In this document: positions 20,381 to 63,402 of the stretch, piece by piece
How positions within the stretch are numbered: position 1 is the stretch's first letter
Layout: each line of letters starts with the position of its first letter
DNA from: Chthoniobacterales bacterium
GTDB taxonomy: Bacteria > Verrucomicrobiota > Verrucomicrobiia > Chthoniobacterales > JACTMZ01
NCBI GenBank assembly: GCA_049315725.1
Contig: JBMOJP010000002.1
Coordinates: 17,220-81,219, forward strand
Reading direction: 5' to 3'
DNA length: 64,000 nt
Translations under genes and position numbers: made by a program
The notes under the pieces: model-generated
The model's database searches: none
Told to the model about the DNA's origin: nothing
What the model saw: only the letters and a program-made list of their open reading frames with translations

Positions 20381-22327
20381 ATGACCAAGAAGAAACCAGC
20401 GCCTCGTTGTCACCCCGGAGCCCGGCGCATCAGCCTGCTGCGGCCGCGCGCGCGCCAGCGGAGGATCCGCCGTCAGCGAACCCGACGGCTCGGTCGTCTG
20501 GTCCTCGCCTGTTTTTTGCTCTGGACCATCGTGGCCTCTTTCTATGCCGCATGGGCCTGGACTTTCGACTTGCAGCAGGTCGGGCACATCCCCGAAAGCT
20601 CGCTCGTCCTCGACCGCAACGGTCAGGTCTACACCCGCCTGGCCGGCGAGCACCGTCGCACGGTTCCGCTTTCGGCCATCAGCCCTTGGTTTGTCCGCGC
20701 GGTCATTGCCCGGGAGGATTCGCGCTTCCGCCAGCATTTCGGCATTGATCCGATCGGCATCGTGCGTGCGGTGGCCAGCAACCTCGCCGCCGGTGGCATC
20801 AGGCAGGGCGGCAGCACGCTGACCCAGCAGCTCGCGCGAAACAGCTTTCCCCTCGGCGGGCAGAACATCCATCGCAAGATTCTCGAGGCTGTTCTGGCCC
20901 TGAGAATGGAAATGGTTTTCTCCAAGGACGAAATCCTCACGCACTACATGAACCGGATCTACTTCGGAGCCGGACTTTTCGGCATCGAAACGGCCAGCCA
21001 GGCCTACTTTCAAAAGCCGGCGGCCGATTTGACGCTGGCCGAATCGGCTCTGCTCGCCGGGCTTATTCGCAGTCCTAATCGCTTGTCGCCCTTCCGCGAC
21101 CCGAATGGCGCGCTGGAGCAACGCAACATCACGCTCCAGCAAATGGAATCACTTGGTTACATTTCCGCCGGGCAGCGTGAGGAGGCCCAAGCCGAGCCGG
21201 TCCTGCTGGCGGCCGAGCGTCCACCGCCGCCGCAAGAGGACTGGGCCATGGAGTTGCTCTGGCGCGAATTGGAACGCATCTTGCCGCAGGATATTCTCGA
21301 TGGCGCGGGCTTGAAGATCTACACCACGCTGGACACCGGGATGCAGCGCACGGCCGTGGCGGCGGTCGAGGAGCAACTGCAATCGGTCGAAGCCCGCCCG
21401 GGGTATGCGCATCCGCGCAAGGCCGAAGTTGGTCCGGTTGACCCCCAGAGTCGCGAGGGCACGCCGTATTTGCAGGCCTCGGCCATGGCGATCGACAATG
21501 ACACCGGCGGGGTGCGGGTGCTCGTCGGAGGACGTGATTACGCCGCGAGCAAGTTCAACCGTGCCTATTTCTCCGAGAGGCAGGTTGGTTCGGCAGCCAA
21601 GCCCTTTGTCTATGCCGTGGCTTTCGCCGGGGGGCTTGATCCAACCACCCCGGTGAGTGACGACCGCATCCAGCCGGGGGAACTGCCCAAGGCCTTCGGT
21701 CGCTATGACCCGTCAAACAGCGACGAGACCTACCGGGGAATGCTGCCGGCCAAGGAGGGTCTGATTCTCTCCCGAAACACCATGAGTGTGCGCATCGGCA
21801 CGATGGCGGGGATTGACCGGGTGCGGGAGACCATCCTCGCCGCGGACTTAACCAAGGACGCCCCGCGTTTTCCTTCCATTTTTCTTGGCTCCTTCAGCGG
21901 AACTTTGCGCGCCTTGACGGCAGCCTACGCGGCCTTGGCCAGCGATGGTGTCGCTCCCACGCCGTATCTGCTCGATCGGGTCGAAGACCCCCAGGGCCGG
22001 GTGCTCTACCGGCGCAAGGACGTGCGGCAGCGAATTCTTCCCGCCCGGGCCGCCCGCCTCACGGCGGCGGTGCTGGTGGAGGCGATGACCCGTGGCACGG
22101 GAGCAGCGGCGGCCGGCCTGGGCTACCAGGGCAAGGCGGGGGGAAAGACCGGCACGACCAACGATTACCGGGACGCTTGGTTTCTTGGCTTCGATGAAAC
22201 CACCACCTGCGGCGTGTGGGTCGGCTTCGACCGGCCGAAGCAGATCATGGACCGCGGCTACGGCGCGACCCTGGCCCTGCCGATCTGGGTCAAGATTATG
22301 AACGCCGTCCCCTCGCCGCCCGCCTAG
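20381..22327 (+). CDS. class A penicillin-binding protein (glycosyltransferase + transpeptidase)
   Basis: 648 aa. GT51 motifs REDSRFRQHFGIDPIGIVRA, GGSTLTQQLARN and RKILEAVLALRME. Transpeptidase motifs SAAKP and KTGTTND. Confidence 0.9.
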   Translation: MTKKKPAPRCHPGARRISLLRPRARQRRIRRQRTRRLGRLVLACFLLWTIVASFYAAWAWTFDLQQVGHIPESSLVLDRNGQVYTRLAGEHRRTVPLSAISPWFVRAVIAREDSRFRQHFGIDPIGIVRAVASNLAAGGIRQGGSTLTQQLARNSFPLGGQNIHRKILEAVLALRMEMVFSKDEILTHYMNRIYFGAGLFGIETASQAYFQKPAADLTLAESALLAGLIRSPNRLSPFRDPNGALEQRNITLQQMESLGYISAGQREEAQAEPVLLAAERPPPPQEDWAMELLWRELERILPQDILDGAGLKIYTTLDTGMQRTAVAAVEEQLQSVEARPGYAHPRKAEVGPVDPQSREGTPYLQASAMAIDNDTGGVRVLVGGRDYAASKFNRAYFSERQVGSAAKPFVYAVAFAGGLDPTTPVSDDRIQPGELPKAFGRYDPSNSDETYRGMLPAKEGLILSRNTMSVRIGTMAGIDRVRETILAADLTKDAPRFPSIFLGSFSGTLRALTAAYAALASDGVAPTPYLLDRVEDPQGRVLYRRKDVRQRILPARAARLTAAVLVEAMTRGTGAAAAGLGYQGKAGGKTGTTNDYRDAWFLGFDETTTCGVWVGFDRPKQIMDRGYGATLALPIWVKIMNAVPSPPA

Positions 22328-25557: not shown

Positions 25558-26181
25558 ATGAAATCCGCTGCTGTTCTTGCTCTCGCCGCCCTCGCGCTGA
25601 CCTCCCACGGAGTTTTGGCCCAACAACCCAACACCGACTTCAAAGTCACCGGCATCAAACCCGACTTTGTCACCACCCCCGACTATTCGGTCAACTTCGG
25701 CCCGAAAAACAAGCGGGTCGCGAAGAACAAGAACTTCCTTGAAATCGAAACCAACTTTGACTGGCAACCGAAAGCCAACAAGCCCGAGTTTCTCGACGAG
25801 CTGACCTTCACCTATTACGTGCTGCTGAAAAATCAGGATCGCGAGAATCCGAAAGGAACACTCCTCGTCGGCTCGGTGACCCATACGGCGATTCCGCAGG
25901 AGAAGGGACTGAACTCGGTCATGTATGTGAGCCCGCGCACCCTTGAGCGTTTCTTCGCTGGCAAGGTTCCGACGACAGTTGACCAATCGGTCGTCGATCT
26001 CGCCGTGACGATCAGCTCGCAGGGACAGTTGGTCGCCGAAGCGAGCTGGAAAGGCCGCGGCCAGTGGTGGACCACCTACCAGCAGGTCACCGGCTACGTG
26101 CTCAATAAGAACGAAACACCTTTCGGCCCGCTGGCTTGGGACTATTACGAGGCCATCAAGGCCCGGCCCGCCGGCCAGTAA
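25558..26181 (+). CDS. secreted small protein, first gene of the pilus-like locus (Amuc_1102-like by position)
   Basis: 207 aa. Sec/SPase-I signal peptide MKSAAVLALAALALTSHGVLAQ-Q with no prepilin G-F-T-L-x-E motif. The family assignment rests on synteny with the Akkermansia locus order as I recall it. Confidence 0.6.
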   Translation: MKSAAVLALAALALTSHGVLAQQPNTDFKVTGIKPDFVTTPDYSVNFGPKNKRVAKNKNFLEIETNFDWQPKANKPEFLDELTFTYYVLLKNQDRENPKGTLLVGSVTHTAIPQEKGLNSVMYVSPRTLERFFAGKVPTTVDQSVVDLAVTISSQGQLVAEASWKGRGQWWTTYQQVTGYVLNKNETPFGPLAWDYYEAIKARPAGQ

Positions 26182-26225
26182 ACGGCCGACCCCCGCTCAC
26201 CTCCGCCCGAGCCTTCGACCGAATC

Positions 26226-27971
26226 ATGCCCAGGCCTCCCTCCCGCGTCGCCGCCGTCAACCTCGGCATGCAAACCGTCACCATGGCGGTCTTCGACGCA
26301 ACCAAGGATGGCGGGCTGCAACTCCACGCCTTCGCCCAGGCGGATCTGGTGCCGGATCCGGCCGCGGATGCCAGCCGGGGCGGGCAGTTGAAAATCGCCC
26401 TCGACGGCTTGCGTGCTGAACTCGGCTGGAAGCAGGGCTACGTCGCCTGCGCCATTCCCTCGCAGGGCGTCTTTGCGCGTTTCGTCAAGATACCGAAAGT
26501 TGAAGCAGACAAGGTTGACCAGGTTGTGCTTTTCGAGGCCCAGCAGAACGTCCCCTACCCCATTGAGGAAGTGGCCTGGTCCTATCAGGTGCTGCCCGAG
26601 AAGGAGCCGGACTCGTTGAACGCGCTGATCATCGCGACCAAGACCGAGCAGCTCGAGACCGCGGTGGGTGCCATGCAGGAGGCGAAGTTGGCTCCCGACC
26701 TCATCGAGACCTCACCGTCCGCCCTTTACAACGCCTTCCGCTACAACTACCCGGACGTGCAGGGGTGTTCGCTCCTCATTGACCTTGGGGCGCGCGCCAC
26801 CAATCTCCTTTTCATCGAGGGCGACGAAGTCTTCATGCGAACCCTCCCGATCGGCGGCAACTCGATCACGGCGGCCCTGCACAAGAAATTCGAGACACGC
26901 GCCTTCGGCGAAGTCGAGGACTTCAAACGCACGGAGGGATTGATCCCACCGCCGGGAAACTACACCGGGGCCAAGAGCGAGGAAATTGCCGAGATGGGCA
27001 AGATCGCCCGCACCGTGATGACCCGCATCCACAACGAAATCACCCGGTCGGTCACGTTCTACCGGACGAGTCAGAAAGGCGCGGCGCCGATGCGAGTGTT
27101 TCTCGCCGGCGGCGGCGTCTCGCTGCCCTACACCCTCGAATTCTTCAACGAGAAACTCTCCCTGCCGATCGAATTTTTCAATCCCCTCAGGCGCGTCAGC
27201 GTGGGCTCGAGCCTCGCGCCTGAGACTCTGGCCAAAGCCGCCCACACTCTGGGCGAATGCGTCGGCCTCAGCCTGCGCCCGATGACCGGGGACTGTCCGT
27301 TGGAGATCACGCTGAAGTCCGCAGCTCTGGAAAAGGCGCGGGCCAATGACCGCCGGCGCCCATTTCTCTTCGCGGCGGCGGCTGTCTTCCTTGCGGCGAT
27401 CGGCTTGGTCGGCCTGTATTATCGGCAGGCCGGAGCTTACCTCGAAGGAGTCAACACCGGCTTGCAGGCCCAGATTGCACCGCTCGAGCAGTTGAATGGC
27501 CAGATCACCGAGTTGCAAAAACGTCGTGACCAACTGCTCAAGGATTCCCCCGATCTCGCGGCCGCCCCCATCTGGCGGGTTGCCTGGGTCGAACTGCTCA
27601 AGGATCTCAACTCGCGTCTGCCCGCCAAGTTCATCTGGGTGACCAAACTATCACCCTCCCCCGAAGTCCCCGGATTTTCGGCTGCTTCGGCGGCCAAGCC
27701 CACGGCGGCACCAGCAACCGACAAGCCGGGCGAGGGCGCGAACCAGGCCAACGCCGTCAGCGGAATCCTCATCGAGGGTCTCTACTTGGAGAATCCGGGC
27801 GGCCCGGCCGTGGTGAGCGAGTTCGTCGATGCCCTGGCCAAATCGGAACTTTTCGACATCAACGACGGCAACAAGGATGCGGTGATCCAACTGCGCACCG
27901 CGCAAAGCGGTGAAGCGTGGGCTTACAAATACAAACTGCTTCTGCCGCTCAAGCGCCCCATCCCTCTCTAA
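26226..27971 (+). CDS. pilM: PilM-like actin-fold ATPase fused to a PilN-like transmembrane/coiled-coil module (Amuc_1101-like)
   Basis: 581 aa from the ATG at 26226. VAAVNLGMQTVTMAVF, LLIDLGARATNLLFIEGDEVFMRTLPIGGNSIT and VFLAGGGVSLPY are actin/PilM-type phosphate motifs. These are followed by the TM segment RRRPFLFAAAAVFLAAIGLVGLYY, a coiled coil and an alpha/beta C-terminal domain. Confidence 0.8.
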   Translation: MPRPPSRVAAVNLGMQTVTMAVFDATKDGGLQLHAFAQADLVPDPAADASRGGQLKIALDGLRAELGWKQGYVACAIPSQGVFARFVKIPKVEADKVDQVVLFEAQQNVPYPIEEVAWSYQVLPEKEPDSLNALIIATKTEQLETAVGAMQEAKLAPDLIETSPSALYNAFRYNYPDVQGCSLLIDLGARATNLLFIEGDEVFMRTLPIGGNSITAALHKKFETRAFGEVEDFKRTEGLIPPPGNYTGAKSEEIAEMGKIARTVMTRIHNEITRSVTFYRTSQKGAAPMRVFLAGGGVSLPYTLEFFNEKLSLPIEFFNPLRRVSVGSSLAPETLAKAAHTLGECVGLSLRPMTGDCPLEITLKSAALEKARANDRRRPFLFAAAAVFLAAIGLVGLYYRQAGAYLEGVNTGLQAQIAPLEQLNGQITELQKRRDQLLKDSPDLAAAPIWRVAWVELLKDLNSRLPAKFIWVTKLSPSPEVPGFSAASAAKPTAAPATDKPGEGANQANAVSGILIEGLYLENPGGPAVVSEFVDALAKSELFDINDGNKDAVIQLRTAQSGEAWAYKYKLLLPLKRPIPL

Positions 27972-28855
27972 TGGACTGGTTTCGACACAACCCACTTCTC
28001 GGTGGTCTGCTGGTAGCCACGGCCCTCTTGGCTCTGGTCGGTGGCTACTTCGTGCAGACGGGGAGCACCTTCTACGCCGAGCAAGTGGAGGCCTACAGCA
28101 CCCATAGCGGTGCGCTGAACCGTCTCCAAACAGCCAAGCCATTTCCCAGCGAGGCCAATCGTGCCGCGGCTCAGACCGAGTTCGACGCGGCCGAAAAAAC
28201 ACTGCAGGAACTCTCCTCCTACGTGGAAAGCCAGAGCGATCCGGTGCGCCCGCTGAATCCCCAGGAGTTTCAGGACGAGTTGAGCAAGAAAGTGGCAGCG
28301 GTCATTGAGGCCGCAGCCAAGGCCGGTGTGACCCTGCCGGATGGTTTTTATCTGGGCTTCGACGCCTACCGCACCGCTCCGCCGGCGCCCGCGGCGGCAG
28401 CTTTGCTCGGTCAGCAGTTGCTGGCGGTGGAACAAGTCGTCACGCAGTTGATCAAAGCCCAGGTGAAGGGAATCAACAACATCAGCCGCCGCCCCCTGTC
28501 GGTTGAAGCTCCGGGAGGAGATGCGGCCAAGAACAAGAAGGACAAGCCGGGTGAAGACGGCAAAAGCAAGCTGGTTCACCTCGCCCTCGCACCTTTTGAT
28601 GTGGCCTTCGAAGGCGACCAAACCGCTTCCCGCGCCGCCATGGCGGCGATCGTGACAGCCCGCCCCCTCATCTTCATCCGTCTGGCCTCGGTGGCCAACT
28701 CGCAGCCCGAGGCGCCCACGAAAGAAGCCGCACCCGGGGCCACCCCGGTTTCTACCACCGGAACAAATGCCACCGGCATTCCCGTGCTTTTCGGCCAGGA
28801 GACCCTGCAAGTCATCCTGCGCCTCGCCGCCATCTCCGGACCGGAAAACAACTGA
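27971..28855 (+). CDS. Amuc_1100-like bitopic protein (PilO-like position)
   Basis: 294 aa from the ATG at 27971 (TAATG overlap with the upstream stop). N-terminal TM segment LLGGLLVATALLALVGGYF, a long helical region, the block LAPFDVAFEGDQTASRAAMAAI, and the C-terminal GQETLQVILRLAAISG. Confidence 0.7.
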   Translation: MDWFRHNPLLGGLLVATALLALVGGYFVQTGSTFYAEQVEAYSTHSGALNRLQTAKPFPSEANRAAAQTEFDAAEKTLQELSSYVESQSDPVRPLNPQEFQDELSKKVAAVIEAAAKAGVTLPDGFYLGFDAYRTAPPAPAAAALLGQQLLAVEQVVTQLIKAQVKGINNISRRPLSVEAPGGDAAKNKKDKPGEDGKSKLVHLALAPFDVAFEGDQTASRAAMAAIVTARPLIFIRLASVANSQPEAPTKEAAPGATPVSTTGTNATGIPVLFGQETLQVILRLAAISGPENN

Positions 28856-28856
28856 C

Positions 28857-29822
28857 ATGGATTATCTGAAGGCCCACTACGACCGGATCCTGCTCATCGT
28901 CGCCGCACTGCTGCTCTGTGCTGCCGTGGCCTATGTGGTTCTCGGTCTGTCCGCAGTGAGGTCCGAGCATGCCCTTGTGCAGGCCGCCACCTCGGGGGCG
29001 GCCTATCAAACCGATGCCTCCCTCGAGCGGTTGGCCAAGGACGGCGATAAACTCAAGAATCCGGATAAACACCTCTGGCGCGAGGCGGAGACTTCGCTGT
29101 TCATCAGTCGCGTTCATGTTCTGCGGGACGGCCAGCTGGTCGATATTTTGGAGAGCGACACGGAGCTGCACGCCGGCATCCCGAACACCTGGATCATCGA
29201 GAACAAGCTGGATTACACCGATACGAACCTCCCGGCCAACGATCCGGACTCCGACGGCTTCAGCAACCTGGAGGAGTTTCGCGCCGGGACCAATCCCAAG
29301 GATGCCGCGTCGAAGCCTCCCGTTTGGACCAAGCTGCGGATGAAGAGCTACGAGAGAATTCCTTTCCGCATCAAATTCATGGGCGCCCCCAGCGTCTCGC
29401 CGGGCCAGCCCTACTCGTCCGGCACGCAGCTCTCGATCAACATGGGGGACTTGAGCAAGCCCACGCAGTTCCTCAAGGTCGGGGAAAAGATCGCCGGAAC
29501 AAATTTGGTCATCGTCTCGGCCGAATCGAAAGCCGCGACCAACGCGGTCGGCGCGACCGTTGACGTATCGGAGGTGAAGGTGCGCGACACGGCTACCGGC
29601 GACGAAATTCTTCTCATCGCGGACAAGGAGGTCGATTCGCCCTACTCGTTCGCCATCCTCGCGGACCTCATTTCTGGCTCGGACATTCGGGTGGAGAAGG
29701 GTAAAAATTTCCCGCTTGGGACCGACGGCAAGAGCTACAAACTCATTGACGCCACAGAGACTGGGGCTGTAATAGAGGACACGGTGTCGCCCGGGCAACG
29801 TTTGAACGTCCCCCCGCTTTGA
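28857..29822 (+). CDS. Amuc_1099-like bitopic protein (PilP-like position) with an acidic Ca-binding-type motif
   Basis: 321 aa from the ATG at 28857. TM segment ILLIVAALLLCAAVAYVVLGL. NDPDSDGFSNLEEFRAGTNPKD is encoded at 29238-29303. The C-terminal half is beta-rich. Confidence 0.65.
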   Translation: MDYLKAHYDRILLIVAALLLCAAVAYVVLGLSAVRSEHALVQAATSGAAYQTDASLERLAKDGDKLKNPDKHLWREAETSLFISRVHVLRDGQLVDILESDTELHAGIPNTWIIENKLDYTDTNLPANDPDSDGFSNLEEFRAGTNPKDAASKPPVWTKLRMKSYERIPFRIKFMGAPSVSPGQPYSSGTQLSINMGDLSKPTQFLKVGEKIAGTNLVIVSAESKAATNAVGATVDVSEVKVRDTATGDEILLIADKEVDSPYSFAILADLISGSDIRVEKGKNFPLGTDGKSYKLIDATETGAVIEDTVSPGQRLNVPPL

Positions 29823-29872: not shown

Positions 29873-32296
29873 ATGCCATTAAGCGGGATTCCGTCGTTCC
29901 GACACGCTCTTCCCCTGCTGGCGCTCCTCGCCTGTCTCGCCCCTGGCCTCGTCCAGGCCGGCTCCGGCGGCCAAGTCCCGTCCTCCGGCGTCGAAGCTAC
30001 GGCAGAATTTGAGATCGCGAAGCGGATGCAACTCGCACAGGACTACGCTCCCCAGGCGATGCAGCGTGGATCGATCGCGCTGATGGAGCGGGATTACGAA
30101 ACAGCCTTTGCCCAATACAAAACTGCGGTCGATGCCGTGCCCGACGCGCCGCAAGTCCGGGAGCTTCGCTCGGCCGCCATGGACGGATTCGCCAATGCGG
30201 TTATGGGGCTGGCGGAACAGCGCATCGCGGAGGGCCGATGGGAGGATGCCAAGACCACCGTCAAGGTCATCCTCGAGCCGCAATACAACCCGAACTATAA
30301 GCCTGCCCAGCGCCTGCTCGCCCGCCTCGAGTCGCCCGATTATTTCAACAAGACCATCACGCCGGGCTTTGTCTCCAAAGTCGAAGAGGTCAAGTCACTC
30401 CTAGTCGAGGCCCAGGGCCTTTACGACTCCGGAAGGTTCGACGAATCCTTCGCCAAATATGAGGCGGTGCTGCGCCTCGACCGCTACAACGTGGCCGCCC
30501 GCCGCGGCATGGAGCAGGTCAACCTCGGGCGCTCCCGAGTGGCCGATGACGCCCAGAATCACACCCGTGCGGCCATGATCAGCGAGGTGGACAAAGCTTG
30601 GGAAACCCCGGTGCGCCGCGCCGACCTTGGGCCAGCCGCCGTGATCGAGCAGCCTGTCCTGACCACGCGCGGCACGCAATCGGTCAACCGCAAACTCGAC
30701 GAGATCGTCATTCCCCGCATCAACTTCACGGATGCCACGGTGCGCGAAGCGGTGGAATACCTGCGTCAGCGCTCGGCGGAGCTTGATCTGGACGGCGGGG
30801 ACGTCGGCAATCGCGGAGTCAACATCGTGCTCAAGCTGGATGCGGCAGCCGCCTCGCAAACCATCACCATCGATCTGTCCAACATTCCACTGCGCGAGGC
30901 CCTCGACTACATCACCCGCCTGGCCAACTTGAAGACCAAGATCGAGCCTTACGCGGTTCTCATCGTGCCCCTCTCCGAGGCGACGGATACGCTCGTCACG
31001 AAGGAATACCGCGTGCCGCCCGGCTTCATCACCAGCCTTCCGTCAGGCTCGGCGCCAGCCGCCGATGCCGGCAGTGGCGGCAGCACCGCAGCACGCAGCA
31101 CGGCCAAGGATTTCCTGGAATCGCAGGGCGTGCAATTCCCCCCCGGAGCCAGCGCGAACTTTCTCTCCAGCAGCAGCCGGTTGATCGTCCGCAACACTCA
31201 GGAGAATCTCGATCTGGTCGACGCCTTGGTCGAGAACTCAACCGGGAGCGTGCCTTCGCAAGTCGAGATTGAATCCAAGTTCATCGAGATCTCGCAGCAG
31301 AACCTCAAGGAACTGGGCTTTGATTGGCTCCTCGGCCAGTTCGCCCTGCCCGGTGGATCAGGCGTTTACGCCGGAGGCGGCACGCCCAATGCAACGGGCA
31401 CCACCGCGCCCTTCGCCTATCCCGGGACGGATACCGCCGTGGGCGTAAACAATGTCACGGCAGGAAACCGCACGGGCGAGGCCGCCATAGCAGGAAACGC
31501 CTTGGATGCTCTGTTATTCGGAACTCCCGCCGGTCCCGCCGCCGGTGTTCTTGCCTTGGCCGGTGTCTTCAGCAACCCCCAGTTCCAGGTGGTGCTTCGG
31601 GCCGTGAACCAAAAGAAGGGCATCGACGTTCTCTCCGCCCCCAAGGTGACAACCAAGAGCGGCACCCAGGCAACCATCGAAATCACCCGCGAGTTCCGTT
31701 ACCCGGAGGTTTACAGTCCGCCGCAGATTCCCCAAAGCACTGGTAGCGGAACCCAGCCCATCACCCCGGCCACCCCGGAAAGTTTCAAAATGACCCCAAC
31801 CGGTGTGCGCCTCGTGGTGGAACCTACAGTGGGAGCGGACAATTACACCATCGACCTGCGCTTGCTTCCGGAGGTGACGGAATTTGAGGGGTTCATCAAT
31901 TACGGTTCTCCTATTCTTAACCGTGGCGTGGTCGTGACCGAGAACAAGATCGAATACCCGGTCTTCAACCAACGCAAAGTGGAAACCTCCGTAAGCATCT
32001 ACGACGGCCAGACCGTCGCTCTGGGTGGTCTCATCCGGGAGGACGTGCAGAAGGTCAGCGACAAGACCCCCATCTTGGGTGATATCCCTTATGCTGGAGT
32101 CCTTTTTCGCTCCCAGTCCGACCAGCACATCAAACGCAACCTCATCATTTTTGTCACCGCCACTCTAATGGACCCGGCCGGCCAAGCCTTGGCCGCCGCC
32201 CAGATGCCGATGGAAACCGAGGACCTCGCACCGGCTGACACTTCGCTCGAACTTACACCCGAGCAATCCACTTATGAGCCGCCGCTGCCCAAGTAA
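29873..32296 (+). CDS. secretin-family outer-membrane channel, paralogue 1 (Amuc_1098-like)
   Basis: 807 aa from the ATG at 29873. Signal peptide ending VQA-GSGG. TPR-like N-terminal region, then an STN-like block IPRINFTDATVREAVEYLRQ...IDLSNIPLREALDYITRLANL. Secretin core: QFQVVLRAVNQKKGIDVLSAPKVTTKSG...DGQTVALGGLI...PILGDIPYAGVLFRS...NLIIFVTATLMD. Confidence 0.85.
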   Translation: MPLSGIPSFRHALPLLALLACLAPGLVQAGSGGQVPSSGVEATAEFEIAKRMQLAQDYAPQAMQRGSIALMERDYETAFAQYKTAVDAVPDAPQVRELRSAAMDGFANAVMGLAEQRIAEGRWEDAKTTVKVILEPQYNPNYKPAQRLLARLESPDYFNKTITPGFVSKVEEVKSLLVEAQGLYDSGRFDESFAKYEAVLRLDRYNVAARRGMEQVNLGRSRVADDAQNHTRAAMISEVDKAWETPVRRADLGPAAVIEQPVLTTRGTQSVNRKLDEIVIPRINFTDATVREAVEYLRQRSAELDLDGGDVGNRGVNIVLKLDAAAASQTITIDLSNIPLREALDYITRLANLKTKIEPYAVLIVPLSEATDTLVTKEYRVPPGFITSLPSGSAPAADAGSGGSTAARSTAKDFLESQGVQFPPGASANFLSSSSRLIVRNTQENLDLVDALVENSTGSVPSQVEIESKFIEISQQNLKELGFDWLLGQFALPGGSGVYAGGGTPNATGTTAPFAYPGTDTAVGVNNVTAGNRTGEAAIAGNALDALLFGTPAGPAAGVLALAGVFSNPQFQVVLRAVNQKKGIDVLSAPKVTTKSGTQATIEITREFRYPEVYSPPQIPQSTGSGTQPITPATPESFKMTPTGVRLVVEPTVGADNYTIDLRLLPEVTEFEGFINYGSPILNRGVVVTENKIEYPVFNQRKVETSVSIYDGQTVALGGLIREDVQKVSDKTPILGDIPYAGVLFRSQSDQHIKRNLIIFVTATLMDPAGQALAAAQMPMETEDLAPADTSLELTPEQSTYEPPLPK

Positions 32297-32303
32297 CACT
32301 TTC

Positions 32304-34913
32304 ATGCACCGGCTCATCGCCATCGCCGTTCTTTTCGCTTCGCTCGCTCCGGCCGTCCGGGCCGGCTCCGGCGGCGAAGTCGTGGTTGGGGGCATCGAGT
32401 CCACAGCCGATCGCGAGGAGACTCGGCGCCAGCAAAACATCGCGCGGGCCGAGGAGGCCCTGCGTCGCGGTGATGCGGCGCTGGCGCGCGGCGACATCGA
32501 GGCGGCTTATCTGGCCTACAGAGACGCCCTCGACCTCGTGCCCGATGGCACAGCCACCAAAAGCCTGCGCGCCCGCGCCCTCTCCCGCTACTCCTCCACC
32601 GCGGTGCGCTACGCCGAGTATCTCGTCAGTCAGGGCGAATATGCGAAGGCTGAGGCCGTGGCCCGCGAGGTCTTGGAACCGCGTTACAACCCGAGTTATC
32701 AGCCAGCCGCCCTCTTCCTCTCGCACTTGGAGGAACCGGATTATTTCAACAAAACGATCACCCCGCAGTTCGCCGAGCGCCGGACCAAGGTCAATGATTT
32801 GCTTCTTCAAGCCACGGGATTTTCTGATTCCGGACGCTACGACCTGGCGGAAAAGCGCTACCAGCAGGTCTTGGCCGTCGACCCATACAACTCAGCCGCC
32901 TTCCGAGGCATGGAAGACGTCGAACTGGGAAAGCAACGCTACTACGACAGTGCCTACAATGAGACCCGCTCCCGCATGCTCTGGCAGGTGGACAAGGCGT
33001 GGGAGAGACCGAAACGTCGCTTCGTCGAGGCGCGCTCCACCGATTCCACCGCCCTGCAACAAGAGCGCCGGGGCACGGAGTTGATGATCGCCCGACTTAA
33101 CAGCATCACCATTCCCAAAGTTGATTTCCGGGACGCGACCGTCCGCCAAGCCATTACGTTCCTCCAGCAGCGGAGCCGCGACTTGGACACCACAGAGGCC
33201 GATGCGACCCAGCGCGGGATCAACATTGTTCTCAAGCTCCCCGCCACCCCGCCGCCCGCTCCGGCTGCGGCGGGAGATCTGCTCAGCGGCGACGCGGCGC
33301 CTGTCGCTGCGACTCCGGATAGCCGGATTACGCTAAACCTGACCGATGTGCCTCTCTACGAAGCGCTGCGCTATGTCGCAACTTTGGCGGGCCTTAAAGT
33401 CAAGGTGGAGCCTTTCGCTGTTTCGGTGGTGCCCCTCTCCGAGCCGACGGACACGCTGGAACAGCGCGAGTTCAAAGTTCCACCGGGATTCATCACGGGC
33501 GGTGCCACCAGCGCCGAGCCGGCCGCGCTGGCAGGCCGCTCGAGCAGTGCCGGCGGGACTGGCGGAACATTGTCCGCCAAGCAGGGCGCCCGTGACTTTC
33601 TTGAGTCGCAAGGCGTGGAATTTCCTCCTGGAGCCAGCGCCAACTTCATTGCCGGCAGCAGCCGCCTCGTCGTGCGGAACACCGCCCCCAACCTCGACCT
33701 GATCGAGTCTCTCGTCGATGCCGCCATGGGTGAACAGCCAACCCAGGTGGAGATCGAGGCCAAGTTTGTCGAGGTTTCTCAAGATAACCTGAAAGAGCTG
33801 GGGTTTGATTGGGCTCTCGGCCCCTTCTCCATTCCCGGATCCGATGCTGTCTTTGGCAGCGGTGGCACCCCGATCGCTTCTGGGAGTTCCGCCTATCCCT
33901 TCATCGATCCCGTGACGGGCACCGTGGTTGGCACCGACTCCGTCACCAGCGGCCTTCGCACCGGCAGCCAAGCCATTTCGGCCAATAGCATTGACGCGGT
34001 CATTGCGGGCACGGCCGGTGCCGCCACCGCCCCTGCCGCCGGTGTCTTCTCCATCTCAGGAGTCTTCACCAACCCTCAGTTTCAGGTTGTCCTGCGTGCC
34101 CTCAACCAGAAGAAAGGGGTGGACTTGATGGCGGCGCCGAAAGTGACCACGAAGAGCGGACAGAAAGCCACCATTACCATCAGCCGAGAGTTCCCCTATC
34201 CCGAAACGTATGCGCCTCCGCAGGTCCCGCAAAATACAGGCTCCGGAGCTCAAAATACCGCGGTGATAGGCCAAGCACAGCAAGCCGATCCGGTCGTTAC
34301 GCCCGCTTTCCCCCAGGATTTCACCACCAGGAATCTTGGCGTCACTCTTGAGGTCGAGCCCCAAATTGGTCCGGACGGCTACACCATCGACCTTAACCTC
34401 TCCCCGGAAGTTGTTGACTTTGACGGCTTCATCAACTACGGCAGCCCCATTTATTCAGCCGCTAACCTGACCGCCGCTCAGGATCTTCTCCAGGCGGCTC
34501 TGAATCCTACGAGCTTGCTGAATCCATCGGCTCGTTTTGAACCCCAACTGTTGACCACCAACATCATCAACCAGCCAGTCTTCAGTGTGCGCAAAATTAC
34601 GACCAACGTGAGTATTTGGGACGGGCAAACCGTGGCCTTGGGCGGCTTGATCAGCGAGAACATCCAAAAGGTCAATGACAAGGTTCCGGTCCTCGGCGAC
34701 ATCCCCTATGCCGGGGTCCTCTTCCGCTCCTCGGTCGACCAGAAGATCAAGACCAACCTCATCGTCTTCGTCACCGCACGCTTGATGGATGCGGCCGGTC
34801 AGCCTTTGCGCCCCGAGACCGATACCGATCAGGAAGAAATTGTTGAGCCTCTCGGATTACCGCAGGACCTGCGCAAACCCAGCGTCTCGGCCAAGGGGTT
34901 CCGGCAGAAGTAG
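32304..34913 (+). CDS. secretin-family outer-membrane channel, paralogue 2
   Basis: 869 aa from the ATG at 32304. Collinear with paralogue 1 over its whole length. Shared features are the signal peptide ending VRA-GSGG, YNPSYQPA..EEPDYFNKTITP, the STN-like block and the secretin core PVLGDIPYAGVLFRS...NLIVFVTARLMD. Confidence 0.85.
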   Translation: MHRLIAIAVLFASLAPAVRAGSGGEVVVGGIESTADREETRRQQNIARAEEALRRGDAALARGDIEAAYLAYRDALDLVPDGTATKSLRARALSRYSSTAVRYAEYLVSQGEYAKAEAVAREVLEPRYNPSYQPAALFLSHLEEPDYFNKTITPQFAERRTKVNDLLLQATGFSDSGRYDLAEKRYQQVLAVDPYNSAAFRGMEDVELGKQRYYDSAYNETRSRMLWQVDKAWERPKRRFVEARSTDSTALQQERRGTELMIARLNSITIPKVDFRDATVRQAITFLQQRSRDLDTTEADATQRGINIVLKLPATPPPAPAAAGDLLSGDAAPVAATPDSRITLNLTDVPLYEALRYVATLAGLKVKVEPFAVSVVPLSEPTDTLEQREFKVPPGFITGGATSAEPAALAGRSSSAGGTGGTLSAKQGARDFLESQGVEFPPGASANFIAGSSRLVVRNTAPNLDLIESLVDAAMGEQPTQVEIEAKFVEVSQDNLKELGFDWALGPFSIPGSDAVFGSGGTPIASGSSAYPFIDPVTGTVVGTDSVTSGLRTGSQAISANSIDAVIAGTAGAATAPAAGVFSISGVFTNPQFQVVLRALNQKKGVDLMAAPKVTTKSGQKATITISREFPYPETYAPPQVPQNTGSGAQNTAVIGQAQQADPVVTPAFPQDFTTRNLGVTLEVEPQIGPDGYTIDLNLSPEVVDFDGFINYGSPIYSAANLTAAQDLLQAALNPTSLLNPSARFEPQLLTTNIINQPVFSVRKITTNVSIWDGQTVALGGLISENIQKVNDKVPVLGDIPYAGVLFRSSVDQKIKTNLIVFVTARLMDAAGQPLRPETDTDQEEIVEPLGLPQDLRKPSVSAKGFRQK

Positions 34914-35010: not shown

Positions 35011-35598
35011 ATGCTGCTCGGACTCACAGGCGGCGTAGCCACCGGAAAATCCACCTTTGATGGATTCCTCCGCGCCCGCCACAGCTTTGCCCACTTCGAC
35101 GCGGATGCCTGCGTGCATGAGTTGCTGGCCGAAAACGCTGCCGTCATCGCTGAAGTAATCGGCCTGTTTGGCCCGACCGTGCGCGACGCCTCCGGGGGCA
35201 TTGATCGGGCGGCGGTGCGTCGCATCGTCTTCCGCGATCCGGCGGCCCGCGCCCGCTTGGAGAAGATCCTGCACCCTCGCGTGCGCGAGCGCTGGCAAGC
35301 CCTCCTGTCGGTCTGCCTGGCGACCGGAGAAGACATGCTCTGCAACATCCCACTCCTTTTCGAGACGTCGGCCGAGGGCTTTTTTGACCTGACCATCGTC
35401 GTGGCCGCCACGACGGATCGGCAGCGAAGCCGCATGGCTGCTCGTGGGTTGGATGAAGCAACGATCGAAGCCCTCCTGGCCAGCCAGTGGCCCATGGAGG
35501 ACAAAATCCGCGGCGCTTCCCTCGTCGTTTGGAACGACGGCAGCAAAGAGGCGCTGCAACGTCAGGCCGAGGCCACCCTCGCCCGTATTTTTTCATGA
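35011..35598 (+). CDS. coaE: dephospho-CoA kinase
   Basis: 195 aa. MLLGLTGGVATGKST P-loop and PLLFE. Confidence 0.9.
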   Translation: MLLGLTGGVATGKSTFDGFLRARHSFAHFDADACVHELLAENAAVIAEVIGLFGPTVRDASGGIDRAAVRRIVFRDPAARARLEKILHPRVRERWQALLSVCLATGEDMLCNIPLLFETSAEGFFDLTIVVAATTDRQRSRMAARGLDEATIEALLASQWPMEDKIRGASLVVWNDGSKEALQRQAEATLARIFS

Positions 35599-36932
35599 AG
35601 ACCATGCTCGCCCCACAGCCTGAGACTGGCCCGACCGAGCTTTCCGTTTTTCCGCCGAATGCAGCTGCGGTGGCCGGCTTCGAAGCTTCGGTGGATGACC
35701 TGCAGCGTCTGAATCATGTCGGACTGACTTCACTGCTCGATCGTTACCAGTTGCGCCCCCGCCCGGACGCGACCAAGCGTCACCTCGTCTTTGATCTCTG
35801 CCGGTTCCTCGTCGCGGCGGGCGCGAAGCTTACGGTTGCTGGCATCATCGAAACCATGGCCGACCATGCCATGCTGCGCTGGGCCCGCTACAACTTCGCG
35901 GCCGGGCCGGACGATCTGTTTGTCTCCATCGGACTGGTGCGTGATTTCAACCTGCAGAGCGGTCTTCGCGTCCGGGGCACACTGCGCCTGCCGGCCGATC
36001 GGGAGCGCTATTGTGCGCTCGTTGATCTCACGACCATCGAGGAAATCCCGGTGGCCGAATGGAAAAGCCCCACCCCGTTCGACAAACTGACGCCGCTTTT
36101 TCCCCAGGAACGGATCATGTTGGAGAGCCTGACCGAGCCGACCCTCAGCGCCCGCGCCGTGGACCTGATCGCCCCGCTCGGCAAGGGACAGCGCGCGCTC
36201 ATCGTCGCTCCGCCGCGGACCGGAAAAACCATCCTGATGAAGCACCTCGCGCAGGCCATCCGCTCGACCGCCCCCGACGTGCGGCTCATGCTTCTCCTGG
36301 TGGACGAGCGACCCGAGGAGGTGACAGACCTGCGGCGCTCGATTGATGCCGATATTTACAGCTCAACCTTCGACGAATCACCCCAGCGCCACACGGAACT
36401 GGCCGAATTGGTCAGCGAGCGAGCCAAGCGCCTCGTCGAGTTGGGCCAGGATGTGGTCATTCTCCTCGACAGCATCACCCGCCTGGCCCGGGGCTACAAC
36501 AACCTCCAGCCCGGCAAGGGTCGCATCATGTCTGGCGGCGTCGATGCCAAGGCCCTGATGAAGCCGAAACGCTTCTTCGGCGCCGCCCGCAATACGGAGG
36601 AAGGGGGCAGCCTGACCATTGTCGCCACGGCGTTGGTGGAAACGCAGAGCCGGATGGATGACCTGATCTTCGAGGAGTTCAAGGGCACGGGAAACATGGA
36701 AGTCCACCTCGATAGGACCATCGCCGATCAGCGCATCTTTCCAGCCATCCATGTGACCAAGTCGGCGACTCGCCGGGAGGAAAATCTTTACCATCCGGAC
36801 GAGCTGGCCCGGGTCATTGTGTTGCGCAAGCAATTGAACGAGTTGCCTGCCGTCGAGGCCATGGAGACCCTCATGGCGAACCTGAACCGCACCCAGAGCA
36901 ACGCCGAGCTGTTGCTTCGTGGGCTCCGCTGA
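35595..36932 (+). CDS. rho: transcription termination factor Rho
   Basis: 445 aa from the ATG at 35595 (ATGA overlap with the coaE stop). [18 protein letters not shown] Walker [11 protein letters not shown], and [10 protein letters not shown]...GGVDA...KRFFGAARN. Confidence 0.95.
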
Positions 36933-49909: not shown

Positions 49910-50926
49910 ATGCAGGAGGCTCGCCCGGTTGAAATCATCGGGGGCGGCTTGGCCGGGCTGGCCCTCGGGCTGGGACTGCGGGCCCGCGGTGTGCCCGTCA
50001 CCTTGCGCGAGGCCGGGAGCTATCCGCGCCACCGGGTCTGCGGTGAGTTCATGACCGGACTGGATGAAGCCACGCGAAGGTCGCTGCAGCTGGACGCCGC
50101 CCTGGAGAACGCCAGGCCCGCCACGCGCGTTTCGTGGTTTGATCGGCGGGGCGAAGTCCTTTCCCACCAACTCCCCGAGCCTGCTTTGTGTCTGAGCCGC
50201 TGCACTCTTGATGCACGGCTGGCGGCGGATTTTATCCGGCTCGGTGGCGATCTCGTCACCACCCAGCGGGTGGTTTCGAGTCCAGGCGAGGGCCGCGTTC
50301 TGGCCTGCGGAGCGAAGCCAGACCCGCAGTCGCGGTGGATCGGACTGAAGCAGCATTTTCATCACTTGGAGCTCGCGGCGGATTTGGAGGTTCACCTCGG
50401 CCGCGGAGCCTACATCGGACTGACCAAGGTGGATGACTTCACGACCAATGTGTGCGGTCTTTTTCCCCGCCCGGGGTCCGGCCAGCCTTGCACTTTGATC
50501 GACTGCGTGACGGCGTCCGGGCTGACCGAACTGGCCCGGCGACTGTCCGCCGCGCATGTCGTCGAAGGGTCCGCCTGCGCGGTGGCGGGGCTGAACTATG
50601 CGTCAACCACGGCCACGCCGGACTCACTTGCTCTCGGCGACAGGCAGGGACTGATTCCACCATTCACCGGGCACGGCATGACGATCGCCCTCCAGAGCGC
50701 AGCTTCCGCCCTGGCCCCCTTGGTCACGTGGTCACGACGCGAAGCCGACTGGGCGACGACGACCAACGCAGTGCGTCGGGACCTCGCCCGCCGATTTCAT
50801 CATCGGCTCGGCTGGGCGCGGCGCTTTCATCCCTGGTTGCTTCACCCGCCGACCCAATGGTTGCTCGGCCAAGTCGGACGTTCGGGTCTTGTTCCTTTCT
50901 CCGCGCTTTATCGCCTCACCCACTAA
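49910..50926 (+). CDS. FAD-dependent oxidoreductase (geranylgeranyl-reductase/aromatic-hydroxylase-like)
   Basis: 338 aa. VEIIGGGLAGLALGLGLRARGVPVTLRE dinucleotide-binding motif. Confidence 0.75.
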   Translation: MQEARPVEIIGGGLAGLALGLGLRARGVPVTLREAGSYPRHRVCGEFMTGLDEATRRSLQLDAALENARPATRVSWFDRRGEVLSHQLPEPALCLSRCTLDARLAADFIRLGGDLVTTQRVVSSPGEGRVLACGAKPDPQSRWIGLKQHFHHLELAADLEVHLGRGAYIGLTKVDDFTTNVCGLFPRPGSGQPCTLIDCVTASGLTELARRLSAAHVVEGSACAVAGLNYASTTATPDSLALGDRQGLIPPFTGHGMTIALQSAASALAPLVTWSRREADWATTTNAVRRDLARRFHHRLGWARRFHPWLLHPPTQWLLGQVGRSGLVPFSALYRLTH

Positions 50927-50936
50927 CTTATCTCTC

Positions 50937-51980
50937 ATGTATCTCCACGCCCTGGCCACCGCGACACCGCCGCGATCCTTCACCCAAGCCGAGTGCCTCA
51001 CGTTGGCCCGCTCGTCAACGCACGCGCAAACCAGCCTTGACCGCCGTTCCCACCTGCTCTTGAGGGCCATCCTTCGTGGAGATTCGGGGATCGAGGCCCG
51101 TCAGTTTGCCCTAAACAAAATGCATCGCCTGTTTGATCTCGACGCGGATGAGTTGAACGAGGAATTCCGTCGCGCGGCGCCAGCCCTCGCCGCCTCCGCC
51201 CTGGAACTGGCTTTGGCTCGCGCCGGCCTCACCGCCGATGAACTGGACGCACTGGTGGTCTGCACCTGCACAGGATACCTCTGCCCGGGGGTCAGCAGTT
51301 ATCTCGCGGAGATCGCGGGGCTTCGCCCGAATGCCTGGCTCCAGGATTTGGTCGGTTTGGGTTGTGGCGCAGCCATCCCGGCGCTGCGAGCCGCGGACGC
51401 CATCATCGGAGCCAACCCCAAATCTGTTGTCGCCTGCGTGGCCGTGGAGGTCTGTTCCGCCGCGTTCTATCTGGACAACGATCCGGGGGTCATCATTAGT
51501 GCGTGCCTCTTCGGCGACGGAGCCGCGGCGACCATCTGGCGCGGAGAGTCGGGGCCGGACCGACTGCGTTGCCATAGTTTCGACACACACCACGATCCGC
51601 TGTCCCGCGACCGCATACGCTTCGAGCAACGGAACGGCAAACTGCGCAACCTCCTGCATCCAACCGTGCCGGTCCTGGCCGCCTCGGCGGTGCGAAAACT
51701 CTACGACCGGGCCGTCACAGCCGGACCCATTGCCCGGGTTGTCTCGCATGCGGGCGGCAAAGACGTGATCGCCACACTCCAGGCTGAGTTGCCGCAATAC
51801 GACCTCGGTCCGACCCGGACCGTTCTCCGGGAGCATGGGAACATGAGCAGCCCTTCGGTGCTCTTTGCCCTTGAGGAACTGAGGAAAGAAACCTCTGCAC
51901 CCGAGGCGGGAGAGGACTGGTGGTTGACCTCTTTTGGCGCGGGATTCAGCGCCCATGCCTGCCGCGTGACCGCAGACTAA
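50937..51980 (+). CDS. type III polyketide synthase (chalcone-synthase superfamily)
   Basis: 347 aa from the ATG at 50937. Cys-His-Asn triad contexts: LVGLGCGAAIPAL (Cys codon 51363-51365), VSHAGGKDVI and HGNMSSPSVLFAL. Confidence 0.85.
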   Translation: MYLHALATATPPRSFTQAECLTLARSSTHAQTSLDRRSHLLLRAILRGDSGIEARQFALNKMHRLFDLDADELNEEFRRAAPALAASALELALARAGLTADELDALVVCTCTGYLCPGVSSYLAEIAGLRPNAWLQDLVGLGCGAAIPALRAADAIIGANPKSVVACVAVEVCSAAFYLDNDPGVIISACLFGDGAAATIWRGESGPDRLRCHSFDTHHDPLSRDRIRFEQRNGKLRNLLHPTVPVLAASAVRKLYDRAVTAGPIARVVSHAGGKDVIATLQAELPQYDLGPTRTVLREHGNMSSPSVLFALEELRKETSAPEAGEDWWLTSFGAGFSAHACRVTAD

Positions 51981-62430: not shown

Positions 62431-63402
62431 CTACCAGCCGAGGATGAGGGCGAACATCAGCGGGGCCACAATCGTGGCGTCGGACTCGACGATGAACTTG
62501 GGCGTCCCGGCGCCCAACTTGCCCCAGGTGATTTTTTCGTTCGGCACCGCCCCGGAATACGAGCCGTAGCTCGTGGTCGAGTCGCTGATCTGGCAAAAGT
62601 AGGCCCAGACCGGAATCTCGGGCAGTTGCAGGTCCTGATGGAGCATGGGCACGACGCAGATGGGGAAATCCCCGGCAATGCCTCCGCCGATCTGGAAAAA
62701 TCCGACCGGCGTGGGGGCGTTGTCCTGATACCACCGCGCGAGTTTTTGCATGTATTCGATTCCGGTGCGCACGGTGTGGACGTTTTTGATCTCACCGGTG
62801 ATGACGTGCGAGGCATACATGTTGCCGAGGGTCGAGTCCTCCCAACCGGGCACAATGATGGGAATATTCTTCTCCATCGCCGCAATCATCCATGAGTCCT
62901 TGGGGTCGATCTGGTAAAATTTTTCCAAGGCCCCCGAGCGGAGCGCGCGGAAGAAAAATTCGTGGGGGAAATACCGCTCGCCCGCCGCATCGGCCGTCAT
63001 CCACTGGTCGAGCATGACCGTCTCCAAACGTCGCATGGCCTCCATCTCCGGAATGCAGGTGTCGGTGACACGGTTCATATGCCGGTCGAGCAGGGCCTGC
63101 TCGTCTGCCGGGGTCAGGTCCCGGTAATGCGGCACGCGCTCGTAGTAGTCGTGCGCCACCAAGTTGAAGATGTCCTCCTCGAGGTTCGCCCCGGTGCAGG
63201 AAATGATGTGAACCTTGTCCTGCCGGATCATCTCGGCCAGCGAAAGGCCCAACTCGGCCGTGCTCATGGCCCCGGCGAGCGAAACCAGCATGCGACCGCC
63301 CGAGTCAACCAGCGTGCTGTAGGCGTCGGCCGCGTCGATCAGCGCGGCGGCGTTGAAATGGCGGTAATGGTGGCGGATGAATTGCGAAACGGGTTGGGAC
63401 AT
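62431..63402 (-). CDS. deoxyhypusine-synthase-family protein (bacterial DHS-like, possible homospermidine synthase)
   Basis: 323 aa. HFNAAALIDAADAY...MLVSLAGAMSTAELG...IISCTGANLEEDIFN...FFQIGGGIAGDF. Confidence 0.85.
   Translation of the reverse strand: MSQPVSQFIRHHYRHFNAAALIDAADAYSTLVDSGGRMLVSLAGAMSTAELGLSLAEMIRQDKVHIISCTGANLEEDIFNLVAHDYYERVPHYRDLTPADEQALLDRHMNRVTDTCIPEMEAMRRLETVMLDQWMTADAAGERYFPHEFFFRALRSGALEKFYQIDPKDSWMIAAMEKNIPIIVPGWEDSTLGNMYASHVITGEIKNVHTVRTGIEYMQKLARWYQDNAPTPVGFFQIGGGIAGDFPICVVPMLHQDLQLPEIPVWAYFCQISDSTTSYGSYSGAVPNEKITWGKLGAGTPKFIVESDATIVAPLMFALILGW

Follow-up and report, generated by a model that had tools for sequence, protein, structure and literature searches.

Tandem Amuc_1098-family secretins with short and long predicted gate loops in Chthoniobacterales

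The secretin pair and its operon

The window analysed here, a 64,000-nucleotide stretch of DNA from a Chthoniobacterales bacterium (assembly GCA_049315725.1, contig JBMOJP010000002.1, positions 17,220 to 81,219 of the forward strand), carries two adjacent, full-length paralogous secretin genes in a six-gene operon. Secretin a (29873..32296, + strand; 807 amino acids (aa) from its ATG) is the short-gate paralogue and secretin b (32304..34913, + strand; 869 aa) is the long-gate paralogue, each named for a loop that alignment places at the lower gate of the channel. While the secretin family and the operon were already known, a conserved and recurrent pairing of short-gate and long-gate secretins appears to be undescribed.

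The two proteins had been described in a first-pass annotation, made from the letters of the sequence alone, as adjacent, collinear paralogues, and this description holds: the coordinates are as given there, BLASTP aligns the proteins end to end with 421/840 identities (50%), 67% positives and E = 0, and all of the shared motifs quoted occur in both proteins at matching positions. The collinearity extends from the signal peptide to approximately residue 773 of a and 835 of b, and the barrel domains share 57% identity. A 77-aa block aligned by hand at 54/77 identities is likewise credible, although the best ungapped window of that length actually reaches 57/77. Both open reading frames (ORFs) are unbroken.

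The junction (32294..32303, + strand) consists of the TAA of secretin a followed by a 7-nt spacer up to the ATG of secretin b; starting b at the alternative ATG 32274 would make the two genes overlap. In 33 loci, the stop codon of a and the first ATG of b are separated by -41 to +27 nt (median 10), with several overlaps of -4 or -1. The co-transcription proposed at first pass is thus upheld by a spacing of no more than 27 nt in these 33 loci. No sigma-70 promoter-like site was found in the junction region by a sequence scan. Terminator-like sites numbered 13 against 11.7 expected by chance, none of them at the junction; promoter and terminator counts were at the level of shuffled sequence and are uninformative.

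Both secretins are members of the Amuc_1098 family of type IV pilus outer membrane proteins (NCBIfam NF042912, cutoff 750), with a scoring 836.9 bits over positions 4-803 and b scoring 871.0 bits over positions 3-804 of the 805-position profile. They also match the Pfam Secretin model (PF00263, threshold 27.5) at 119.5 bits (E = 1.5e-34) and 113.8 bits (E = 8.4e-33), respectively, and secretin a is 100% identical to a protein from a Chthoniobacterales metagenome-assembled genome (MAG) already assigned to the Amuc_1098 family at NCBI. Neither copy reaches the cutoff of the PilQ model TIGR02515 (119 and 124 bits versus 284) or of the GspD model TIGR02517 (138.5 and 141.5 bits versus 351); both fall far under the cutoffs of the MshL, HofQ and SctC models, and Pfam finds no AMIN domain in either.

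The operon comprises, in order, Amuc_1102, Amuc_1101/PilM-like, Amuc_1100 and Amuc_1099 family genes followed by secretin a and secretin b, and each component other than the secretin is present in a single copy. The first gene (25558..26181, + strand) encodes an Amuc_1102-family pilus-like protein (NF042424, E = 1.1e-30, 106.6 bits, cutoff 55). It is followed on the same strand by a gene for a 611-aa Amuc_1101-family, PilM-like protein (26136..27971; Pfam PilM_2, E = 3e-29; NF045709, E = 1.1e-166, with 556 bits falling below the cutoff of 650). Next is an Amuc_1100-family gene (27917..28855, + strand) whose product scores 177 bits against NF038287, just under the cutoff of 180, and matches the solved Amuc_1100 structures 6KNY, 6LAD and 6LAF (E ~1e-9); its true start probably lies downstream of 27917. 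The fourth gene (28767..29822, + strand) encodes an Amuc_1099-family protein (NF042425, E = 6.1e-51, 174 bits, cutoff 50).

Because both secretins and the four upstream ORFs match Amuc family models, the sequences identify the locus as a homologue of the Amuc_1098-1102 "pili-like" cluster of Akkermansia muciniphila, and the operon as a verrucomicrobial counterpart of the pilMNOPQ-type envelope-spanning subcomplex. The organism itself is a Chthoniobacterales/Terrimicrobiaceae-type verrucomicrobium, and not a member of the Opitutae as had been supposed at first pass. Genes for a pilus ATPase, a platform protein or a prepilin peptidase were not found within the 64-kb window. The absence of such genes nearby is not unusual for a pilMNOPQ-like sub-operon, as seen in the gene organisation of Pseudomonas.

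According to AlphaFold2 (AF2) models and Pfam, secretin a consists of a signal peptide (residues ~1-29), tetratricopeptide repeats (TPRs; 40-202), a long helix (207-277), an N0-like domain (283-366), an N3-like domain (427-474 and 564-580), the secretin core (585-766) and an acidic, Pro-rich tail. The layout of secretin b is equivalent, with a signal peptide at 1-20, TPRs at 31-192, the long helix at 197-267, N0 at 273-377, the N3-like domain at 429-498 and 586-602, the core at 613-828 and the tail at 831-869. Mean predicted local distance difference test (pLDDT) values are 69.3 for a and 69.6 for b, with the core domains mostly at 80-95. In both models the TPR-like repeats span ~160 aa and lead into a helix of ~70 residues, after which a single N3-like domain, split by a Gly/Thr-rich, low-confidence segment of ~85 residues, follows N0, as opposed to the N0-N1-N2-N3 array of GspD. 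The N0-like and N3-like regions are modelled as alpha/beta folds; Foldseek matches the XcpQ N-domain at E ~1.5e-3, and the Pfam STN match is weak and found in copy a only (19 bits, under the threshold of 28.4). For the C-terminal two thirds of secretin b, Foldseek returns PilQ (6W6M), BfpB, InvG, GspD, RcpA and pIV, and for its N-terminus TPR proteins, in keeping with Pfam TPR matches at the N-termini of both copies. The membrane-insertion motif LGDIPYAGVLFRS (32075-32113 in a, 34692..34730 in b, + strand) is identical in the two copies and aligns with the motif PLLGDLPVLGALFR of Vibrio cholerae PilQ (VcPilQ) in a hidden Markov model alignment.

A TPR-containing N-terminus is indeed atypical for PilQ or GspD, as remarked at first pass, but it defines the known Amuc_1098 family, which was described in Akkermansia in 2016. 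In that work, Ottman et al. reported a pilotin-like N-terminus with three TPRs in Amuc_1098 and a secretin domain at its C-terminus, "unique but conserved" among Verrucomicrobia. Outer-membrane location is known for Akkermansia only, by immuno-electron microscopy, and the pilus-forming role is putative there too. The N-termini of a, b and the single-copy groups carry signal peptidase I-type signal peptides (AxA) with no lipobox or conserved cysteine, so the candidate role of the TPR module as a lipoprotein pilotin was rejected. The C-terminal tails (32190-32293 in a, 34803-34910 in b) are disordered and, in all family members, run from an acidic stretch through a Pro-rich one to a terminal Lys or Gln. 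The b-clade tail keeps a conserved EEIVEPLGLP, found in some single-copy relatives too, and the a tail has diverged. The idea that the tail is specific to copy b was set aside, since an acidic, Pro-rich tail occurs in every group and the b form also occurs in the single-copy locus L041.

Loops that separate the copies

The gates were placed by aligning the family profile to VcPilQ and to its published gate residues, namely the G439 hinge, L445, S448 and S453 of the lower hairpin, and T493 of the upper hairpin. On this alignment, the putative Gate-1 loop of secretin a is a short form of 34 aa (residues 612-645; 31706..31807, + strand), and that of secretin b is a long form of 47 aa (residues 634-680; 34203..34343, + strand) holding 13 residues absent from a; this difference would form the tip of the lower gate hairpin. 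In the structure of f1 pIV, Gate 1 loops seal the pore by reaching its centre, the variable part being the loop tips, and Gate 1 hydrogen-bonds to the adjacent subunit's Gate 2 so that all gates move together. The length difference is characteristic of the two clades into which the copies fall: the Gate-1 window spans 33-35 residues in 43/43 a-clade proteins (exactly 34 in 39/43) and 40-52 in the b clade. Single-copy Chthoniobacterales loci have 42-58 residues in 33/34 cases.

A second loop that differs between the copies lies in N0. In secretin b this is a Pro/Ala-rich loop of residues 312-341 (33237..33326, + strand), predicted to be disordered (pLDDT < 50 over residues 316-334), and in secretin a only 9 residues occupy the position (30836-30862). 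The loop measures 9-13 residues in a, 25-40 in b and 24-64 in single-copy relatives, leaving a shorter by ~20 residues.

A third loop is hypervariable. In secretin b it covers residues 716-756 (34449..34571, + strand), immediately before the residue aligned to VcPilQ T493, and in secretin a it is reduced to a minimal form of 14 aa (residues 681-694; 31913..31954, + strand); it would correspond to the tip of the upper gate hairpin (Gate 2). The first-pass annotation had drawn attention to an insertion here in the second paralogue (SAANLT...TTNI), and its position is exact (b residues 718-754, nt 34455-34565), but it does not define a paralogue, since its length ranges over 14-45 residues across a, b and single-copy groups alike. 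A comparison of L001-L048 illustrates this point (locus handles with the prefix L are used here where loci need to be told apart): in the subclade of the window a is minimal (14) and b expanded (31-45), and in the other subclade the pattern is reversed, with a expanded (24-43) and b at 22-30, near the single-copy length.

Conservation and recurrence of the pair

Relatives were collected in a genome scan of one genome per species, from which the best 80 of 576 confirmed loci, all from Chthoniobacterales-type Verrucomicrobiota, were analysed; outside Chthoniobacterales, the distribution was gauged from 12 look-ups. Trees were built by neighbour-joining (NJ) with Kimura-type distances. An a-then-b pair was found in ~45 of the best 80 loci, in a Terrimicrobiaceae-like clade, and in two divergent loci besides (L081, L082). 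A Terrimicrobium MAG (L023) is among the genomes with the pair. Approximately 33 of the best 80 possess a single secretin, including those of Chthoniobacter flavus Ellin428 and Udaeobacter. The gene order aroD-EPS transferase-operon-secretin(s)-coaE-rho is constant over the Chthoniobacterales loci, the second secretin having been inserted in tandem without disturbing it. It was also observed that coaE and rho lie 3' of the secretin operon (35011-36932 in the window) in nearly every lineage examined, including the distant L081, L082 and L085. To our knowledge, an envelope machine seldom keeps so stable a synteny with housekeeping genes.

The a and b proteins form separate clades, each with 100% NJ bootstrap, and a node joining them as sisters receives 42-76% support across NJ trees. 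In a wider sample with careful alignment and 100 bootstraps, a-type (75%) and b-type (91%) clades are recovered, and both take in L081 and L082; an earlier NJ tree of 254 sequences from a fast alignment, in which a fell with single-copy genes and b elsewhere, was set aside once the careful alignment restored these coherent clades. Patristic distances in the a tree and the b tree correlate at r = 0.97, and each domain is conserved to the same degree in a, in b and in single-copy relatives, with the core at 0.87 in both a and b. Fixed differences between a and b number nine, and b is derived at 7/9. Against the closest relative, L001, dN/dS is 0.040 for a and 0.037 for b, the ratios being approximate because dS exceeds 1 (saturated). 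These values indicate that both copies are under strong purifying selection, and with intact ORFs neither is a pseudogene, a point that the first-pass annotation had marked for checking. Its suggestion of an old duplication with both copies maintained is borne out by separate clades across dozens of species. Together with equal conservation, low dN/dS and the tight spacing of the genes, these clades argue that both are working genes, transcribed together and probably coupled in translation.

An exhaustive, profile-free search returned 1297 cluster representatives at E <= 1e-30, among them at least 150 near full-length TPR-plus-secretin relatives at 33-57% identity. Looking up the loci of some members of this wider set revealed further tandem pairs: L081 (789 aa then 670 aa, followed by coaE-rho), L082 (835 aa then 879 aa, followed by coaE), L084 (859 aa then 815 aa, followed by a HerA-like gene) and L085 (861 aa then 855 aa, followed by coaE-rho). 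The operon at L088 has one secretin. These four pairs ruled out a duplication confined to one family, as the first trees had it. In both L081 and L082, the first gene falls in the a clade (75%) and the second in the b clade (91%), which indicates that these pairs derive from the same duplication as the window pair; identity within the L081 pair is down to 35%. By contrast with this placement across two clades, the L085 pair falls within a clade of its own (96%), the L084 pair within another (88%), and the L077 pair groups with the single-copy L037 (90%). In a tree of the PilM-like neighbour, the main tandem clade is monophyletic at 100% and L077 stands outside, joining it in <= 1% of replicates. 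The grouping of the L077, L084 and L085 pairs by lineage suggests recurrent duplication, or else an ancient duplication with gene conversion. Taken at face value, the trees point to at least four independent tandem duplications; one older duplication, blurred by gene conversion between tandem neighbours, is also compatible with NJ trees.

Regardless of how the pairs arose, every pair measured combines one short Gate-1 copy (34-38) with one long copy (42-55). The lengths of first and second genes are 34 and 47 in the window pair, 34 and 46 in L012, 34 and 42 in L081, 35 and 50 in L082, 37 and 55 in L077, 38 and 45 in L084, and, with the order reversed, 52 and 38 in L085. Single-copy secretins of the operon type have a long Gate-1 (42-58) in 35/36 cases, the exception being L078. 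That a trimmed N0 loop always marks the upstream copy was considered and rejected, since the difference runs the other way in L084 and is missing from L085.

Several observations on individual relatives may be recorded here. The second secretin of L081 (L081:8387-10399), a divergent, AT-rich relative, aligns to secretin b from residue 157, so that ~100 residues of the TPR region have been lost that its partner keeps. L078 (L078:9692-12511) encodes the sole single-copy Chthoniobacterales-type secretin whose Gate-1 window is short, at 34 residues; a long-gate partner may have been lost, or may be encoded elsewhere in the genome. A distant TPR-plus-secretin subfamily, at 33-36% identity to secretin b, is also short-gate and is not part of any Amuc_1102-1099 operon (L086:1447-5472; L089:5001-9006; L090:5001-9041; L091:2475-6430; L092:5001-9268). 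A conserved ORF of 516-569 aa without a Pfam match comes after each of its members, and the two genes together look like a different two-gene outer-membrane system. Between them, L078 and this single-copy subfamily ruled out the notion that short-gate secretins are exclusive to pairs.

Elsewhere in the window, two class A penicillin-binding proteins with transglycosylase and transpeptidase domains are encoded at 20381-22327 (+ strand) and 51977-54541 (- strand), the former directly upstream of the trpD-aroD-EPS transferase genes at the operon's flank. A 338-aa ORF without a Pfam match precedes and overlaps a type III polyketide synthase-like gene (50889-51980; chalcone/stilbene synthase and FAE1 matches; whole region 49910-51980), and a deoxyhypusine synthase-family gene lies at 62431-63402 on the - strand (Pfam DS, E = 5e-38).

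A proposed mixed ring, or possibly two channels

The reading tentatively preferred here, which we place not far short of probable, is that secretins a and b co-assemble into one mixed ring. In such a ring, the Gate-1 loop supplied by copy a would be short and fixed in length and its N0 loop trimmed, copy b would retain the long ancestral loops, and two kinds of subunit, rather than a single kind, would make up the central gate and the N0 ring. The gate loops of the Amuc_1098 family are unusually long, and a ring that receives a long plug from some of its subunits only would be a plausible target of selection, and this would explain the repeated trimming of one copy. The pair is read as adaptive, and not as a chance product of duplication, because the short-plus-long arrangement seems to have arisen in several lineages. 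Co-assembly is favoured because the subunits are made together from abutting genes, because their barrels are so similar and their membrane-insertion motifs identical, and because nothing observed would keep a and b apart, related co-expressed secretins being regarded in the field as prone to form mixed multimers. A stronger version is also put forward, in distinctly guarded terms: the a/b secretins may be obligate hetero-oligomers of alternating or mixed short-gate and long-gate subunits that evolved repeatedly from homomeric ancestors by tandem duplication and Gate-1 trimming.

A number of points weigh against a mixed ring. Published accounts expected mixed secretin multimers to be non-functional, and the nine positions fixed between a and b display no obvious complementary interface pattern. 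Short-gate secretins occur alone in L078 and in the distant subfamily, from which it follows that the short form is probably competent as a homomer and not intrinsically dependent on a partner. The gate assignment derives from flanking alignments, AF2 monomer confidence in the gate loops is low to moderate, and, in a data set of NJ trees only, gene conversion between the neighbouring copies could give the appearance of independent duplications. The case for co-assembly is drawn from sequence and gene context throughout. Finally, secretin b is frameshifted in 4 of ~40 loci, compared with 0/43 for a. Three of the broken copies carry a single frameshift (L017:12578-15132, L019:12597-14994 and L025:12488-15023) and the fourth a gap plus a change of frame (L029:12684-15384), and their flanks are 74-95% identical to intact orthologues. 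Since the first three come from uncultured Verrucomicrobiae MAGs with MFD-prefixed isolate names, the frameshifts could be assembly errors; they could also be a sign of occasional dispensability or pseudogenisation of b.

Two separate homomeric channels, an a-ring and a b-ring docking on the single inner-membrane platform encoded upstream, constitute the main rival reading and a real possibility, if a somewhat doubtful one. The short-gate pore would be the wider or leakier of the two and the long-gate pore tightly plugged, e.g., for a pilus-like fibre versus secreted proteins or DNA. All solved secretins matched in searches of the Protein Data Bank (PDB) are single-protein rings, and both gate types are found alone, the long type in most relatives and the short type in the cases noted above, so each type is probably self-sufficient. 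Secretin b, moreover, carries its derived substitutions at seven positions that are otherwise conserved family-wide. The N0 domain contacts the inner-membrane platform in other systems (GspD, PilQ), and the difference between the copies in the N0 loop could thus tune docking. However, genes that abut or overlap in 33/33 loci leave no room for separate regulation, every other component of the operon is present in one copy only, and barrels that are 57% identical with the same insertion motif offer nothing seen to prevent the two proteins from mixing.

It is unlikely that one copy is instead an accessory, non-pore component, i.e., an assembly helper, scaffold or cap resembling a pilotin or a periplasmic ring protein; the first-pass annotation had entertained a pilotin or cap. 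The family does carry a pilotin-like TPR module, and the second copy of L081, in lacking ~100 TPR residues, demonstrates that the N-terminal module can diverge between copies; yet both secretins keep the whole barrel, the gates, the identical LGDIPYAGVLFRS and an equally conserved core (0.87), and the lipobox cysteine is absent from all N-termini, so that neither is a lipoprotein pilotin. Least likely of all is a dosage or neutral duplicate, a highly improbable account that would suit the symmetric evolutionary rates of a and b but that predicts neither a short and a long copy in each of four separately grouping pairs when single copies are long in 35/36 cases, nor an exact length of 34 residues in 39/43 a-clade proteins, nor the persistence of separate a and b orthologue clades over a divergence as deep as 35% identity within the L081 pair.

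Taken as a whole, the pair is notable in that its members are always made together, have been kept over deep divergence, and have apparently re-evolved several times with the same gate split. It provides a natural test of whether a secretin ring can be heteromeric and of how much gate-loop mass a channel needs. Literature searches turned up no precedent for bacterial tandem or heteromeric secretins. An obligate hetero-oligomer, if true, would give bacteria their first natural secretin of the heteromeric kind, as well as a replicated case of a homomeric ring turning into a two-subunit one. Should the copies form two channels instead, they would show one inner-membrane platform serving two outer-membrane pores. 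The wider relevance of the system lies in its homology to the Akkermansia cluster, proteins of which (Amuc_1100, Amuc_1098) are studied as host-active probiotic factors even though very little is known of the machine's own biology.

Comparison with known systems

The closest described relative is Amuc_1098, the "PilQ" of Akkermansia, which shares the NF042912 family, the TPR-plus-secretin architecture and the operon partners Amuc_1102, 1101, 1100 and 1099 with the window secretins. The Akkermansia Amuc_1098-1102 cluster has been described with one secretin, however, whereas the window has two that differ in the lengths of their Gate-1 and N0 loops. Among solved structures, V. cholerae PilQ (PDB 6W6M) is the best match by sequence and fold. 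Common features include predicted N0-like and N3-like domains, a double-walled barrel with two gate hairpins, the PLLGDxPxxGxLF motif and a gene position after a PilM-like gene in the operon. Unlike PilQ, whose rings are homomeric, a and b lack AMIN domains, possessing instead the TPR module and the ~70-residue helix, and their Gate-1 loop is much longer.

A TPR module is likewise tied to a secretin in systems with the TPR pilotins PilF/PilW/Tgl and TadD, a resemblance noted by Ottman et al., and the RcpA-TadD complex (PDB 8ODN) is one of those that match the a/b barrel in structure and sequence searches. Pilotins are separate outer-membrane lipoproteins, whereas in a and b the TPRs are fused to the N-terminus of the secretin, with no lipobox. 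The pIV protein of filamentous phage (PDB 7OFH) is the source of the gate anatomy used here. It differs in being a homo-15-mer encoded by a single gene, without TPRs, and in having a Gate 1 of ~30 residues compared with ~47-60 here.

The sole precedent found for two secretin C-domain paralogues in one system is the GspD and GspDL pair of the mitochondrial system derived from the type II secretion system. That pair differs from a and b in being eukaryotic and organellar, with a highly divergent GspDL and N-domains on separate polypeptides, and not a tandem operon pair of bacteria; those who described it interpreted the pair as elaborating the pore.

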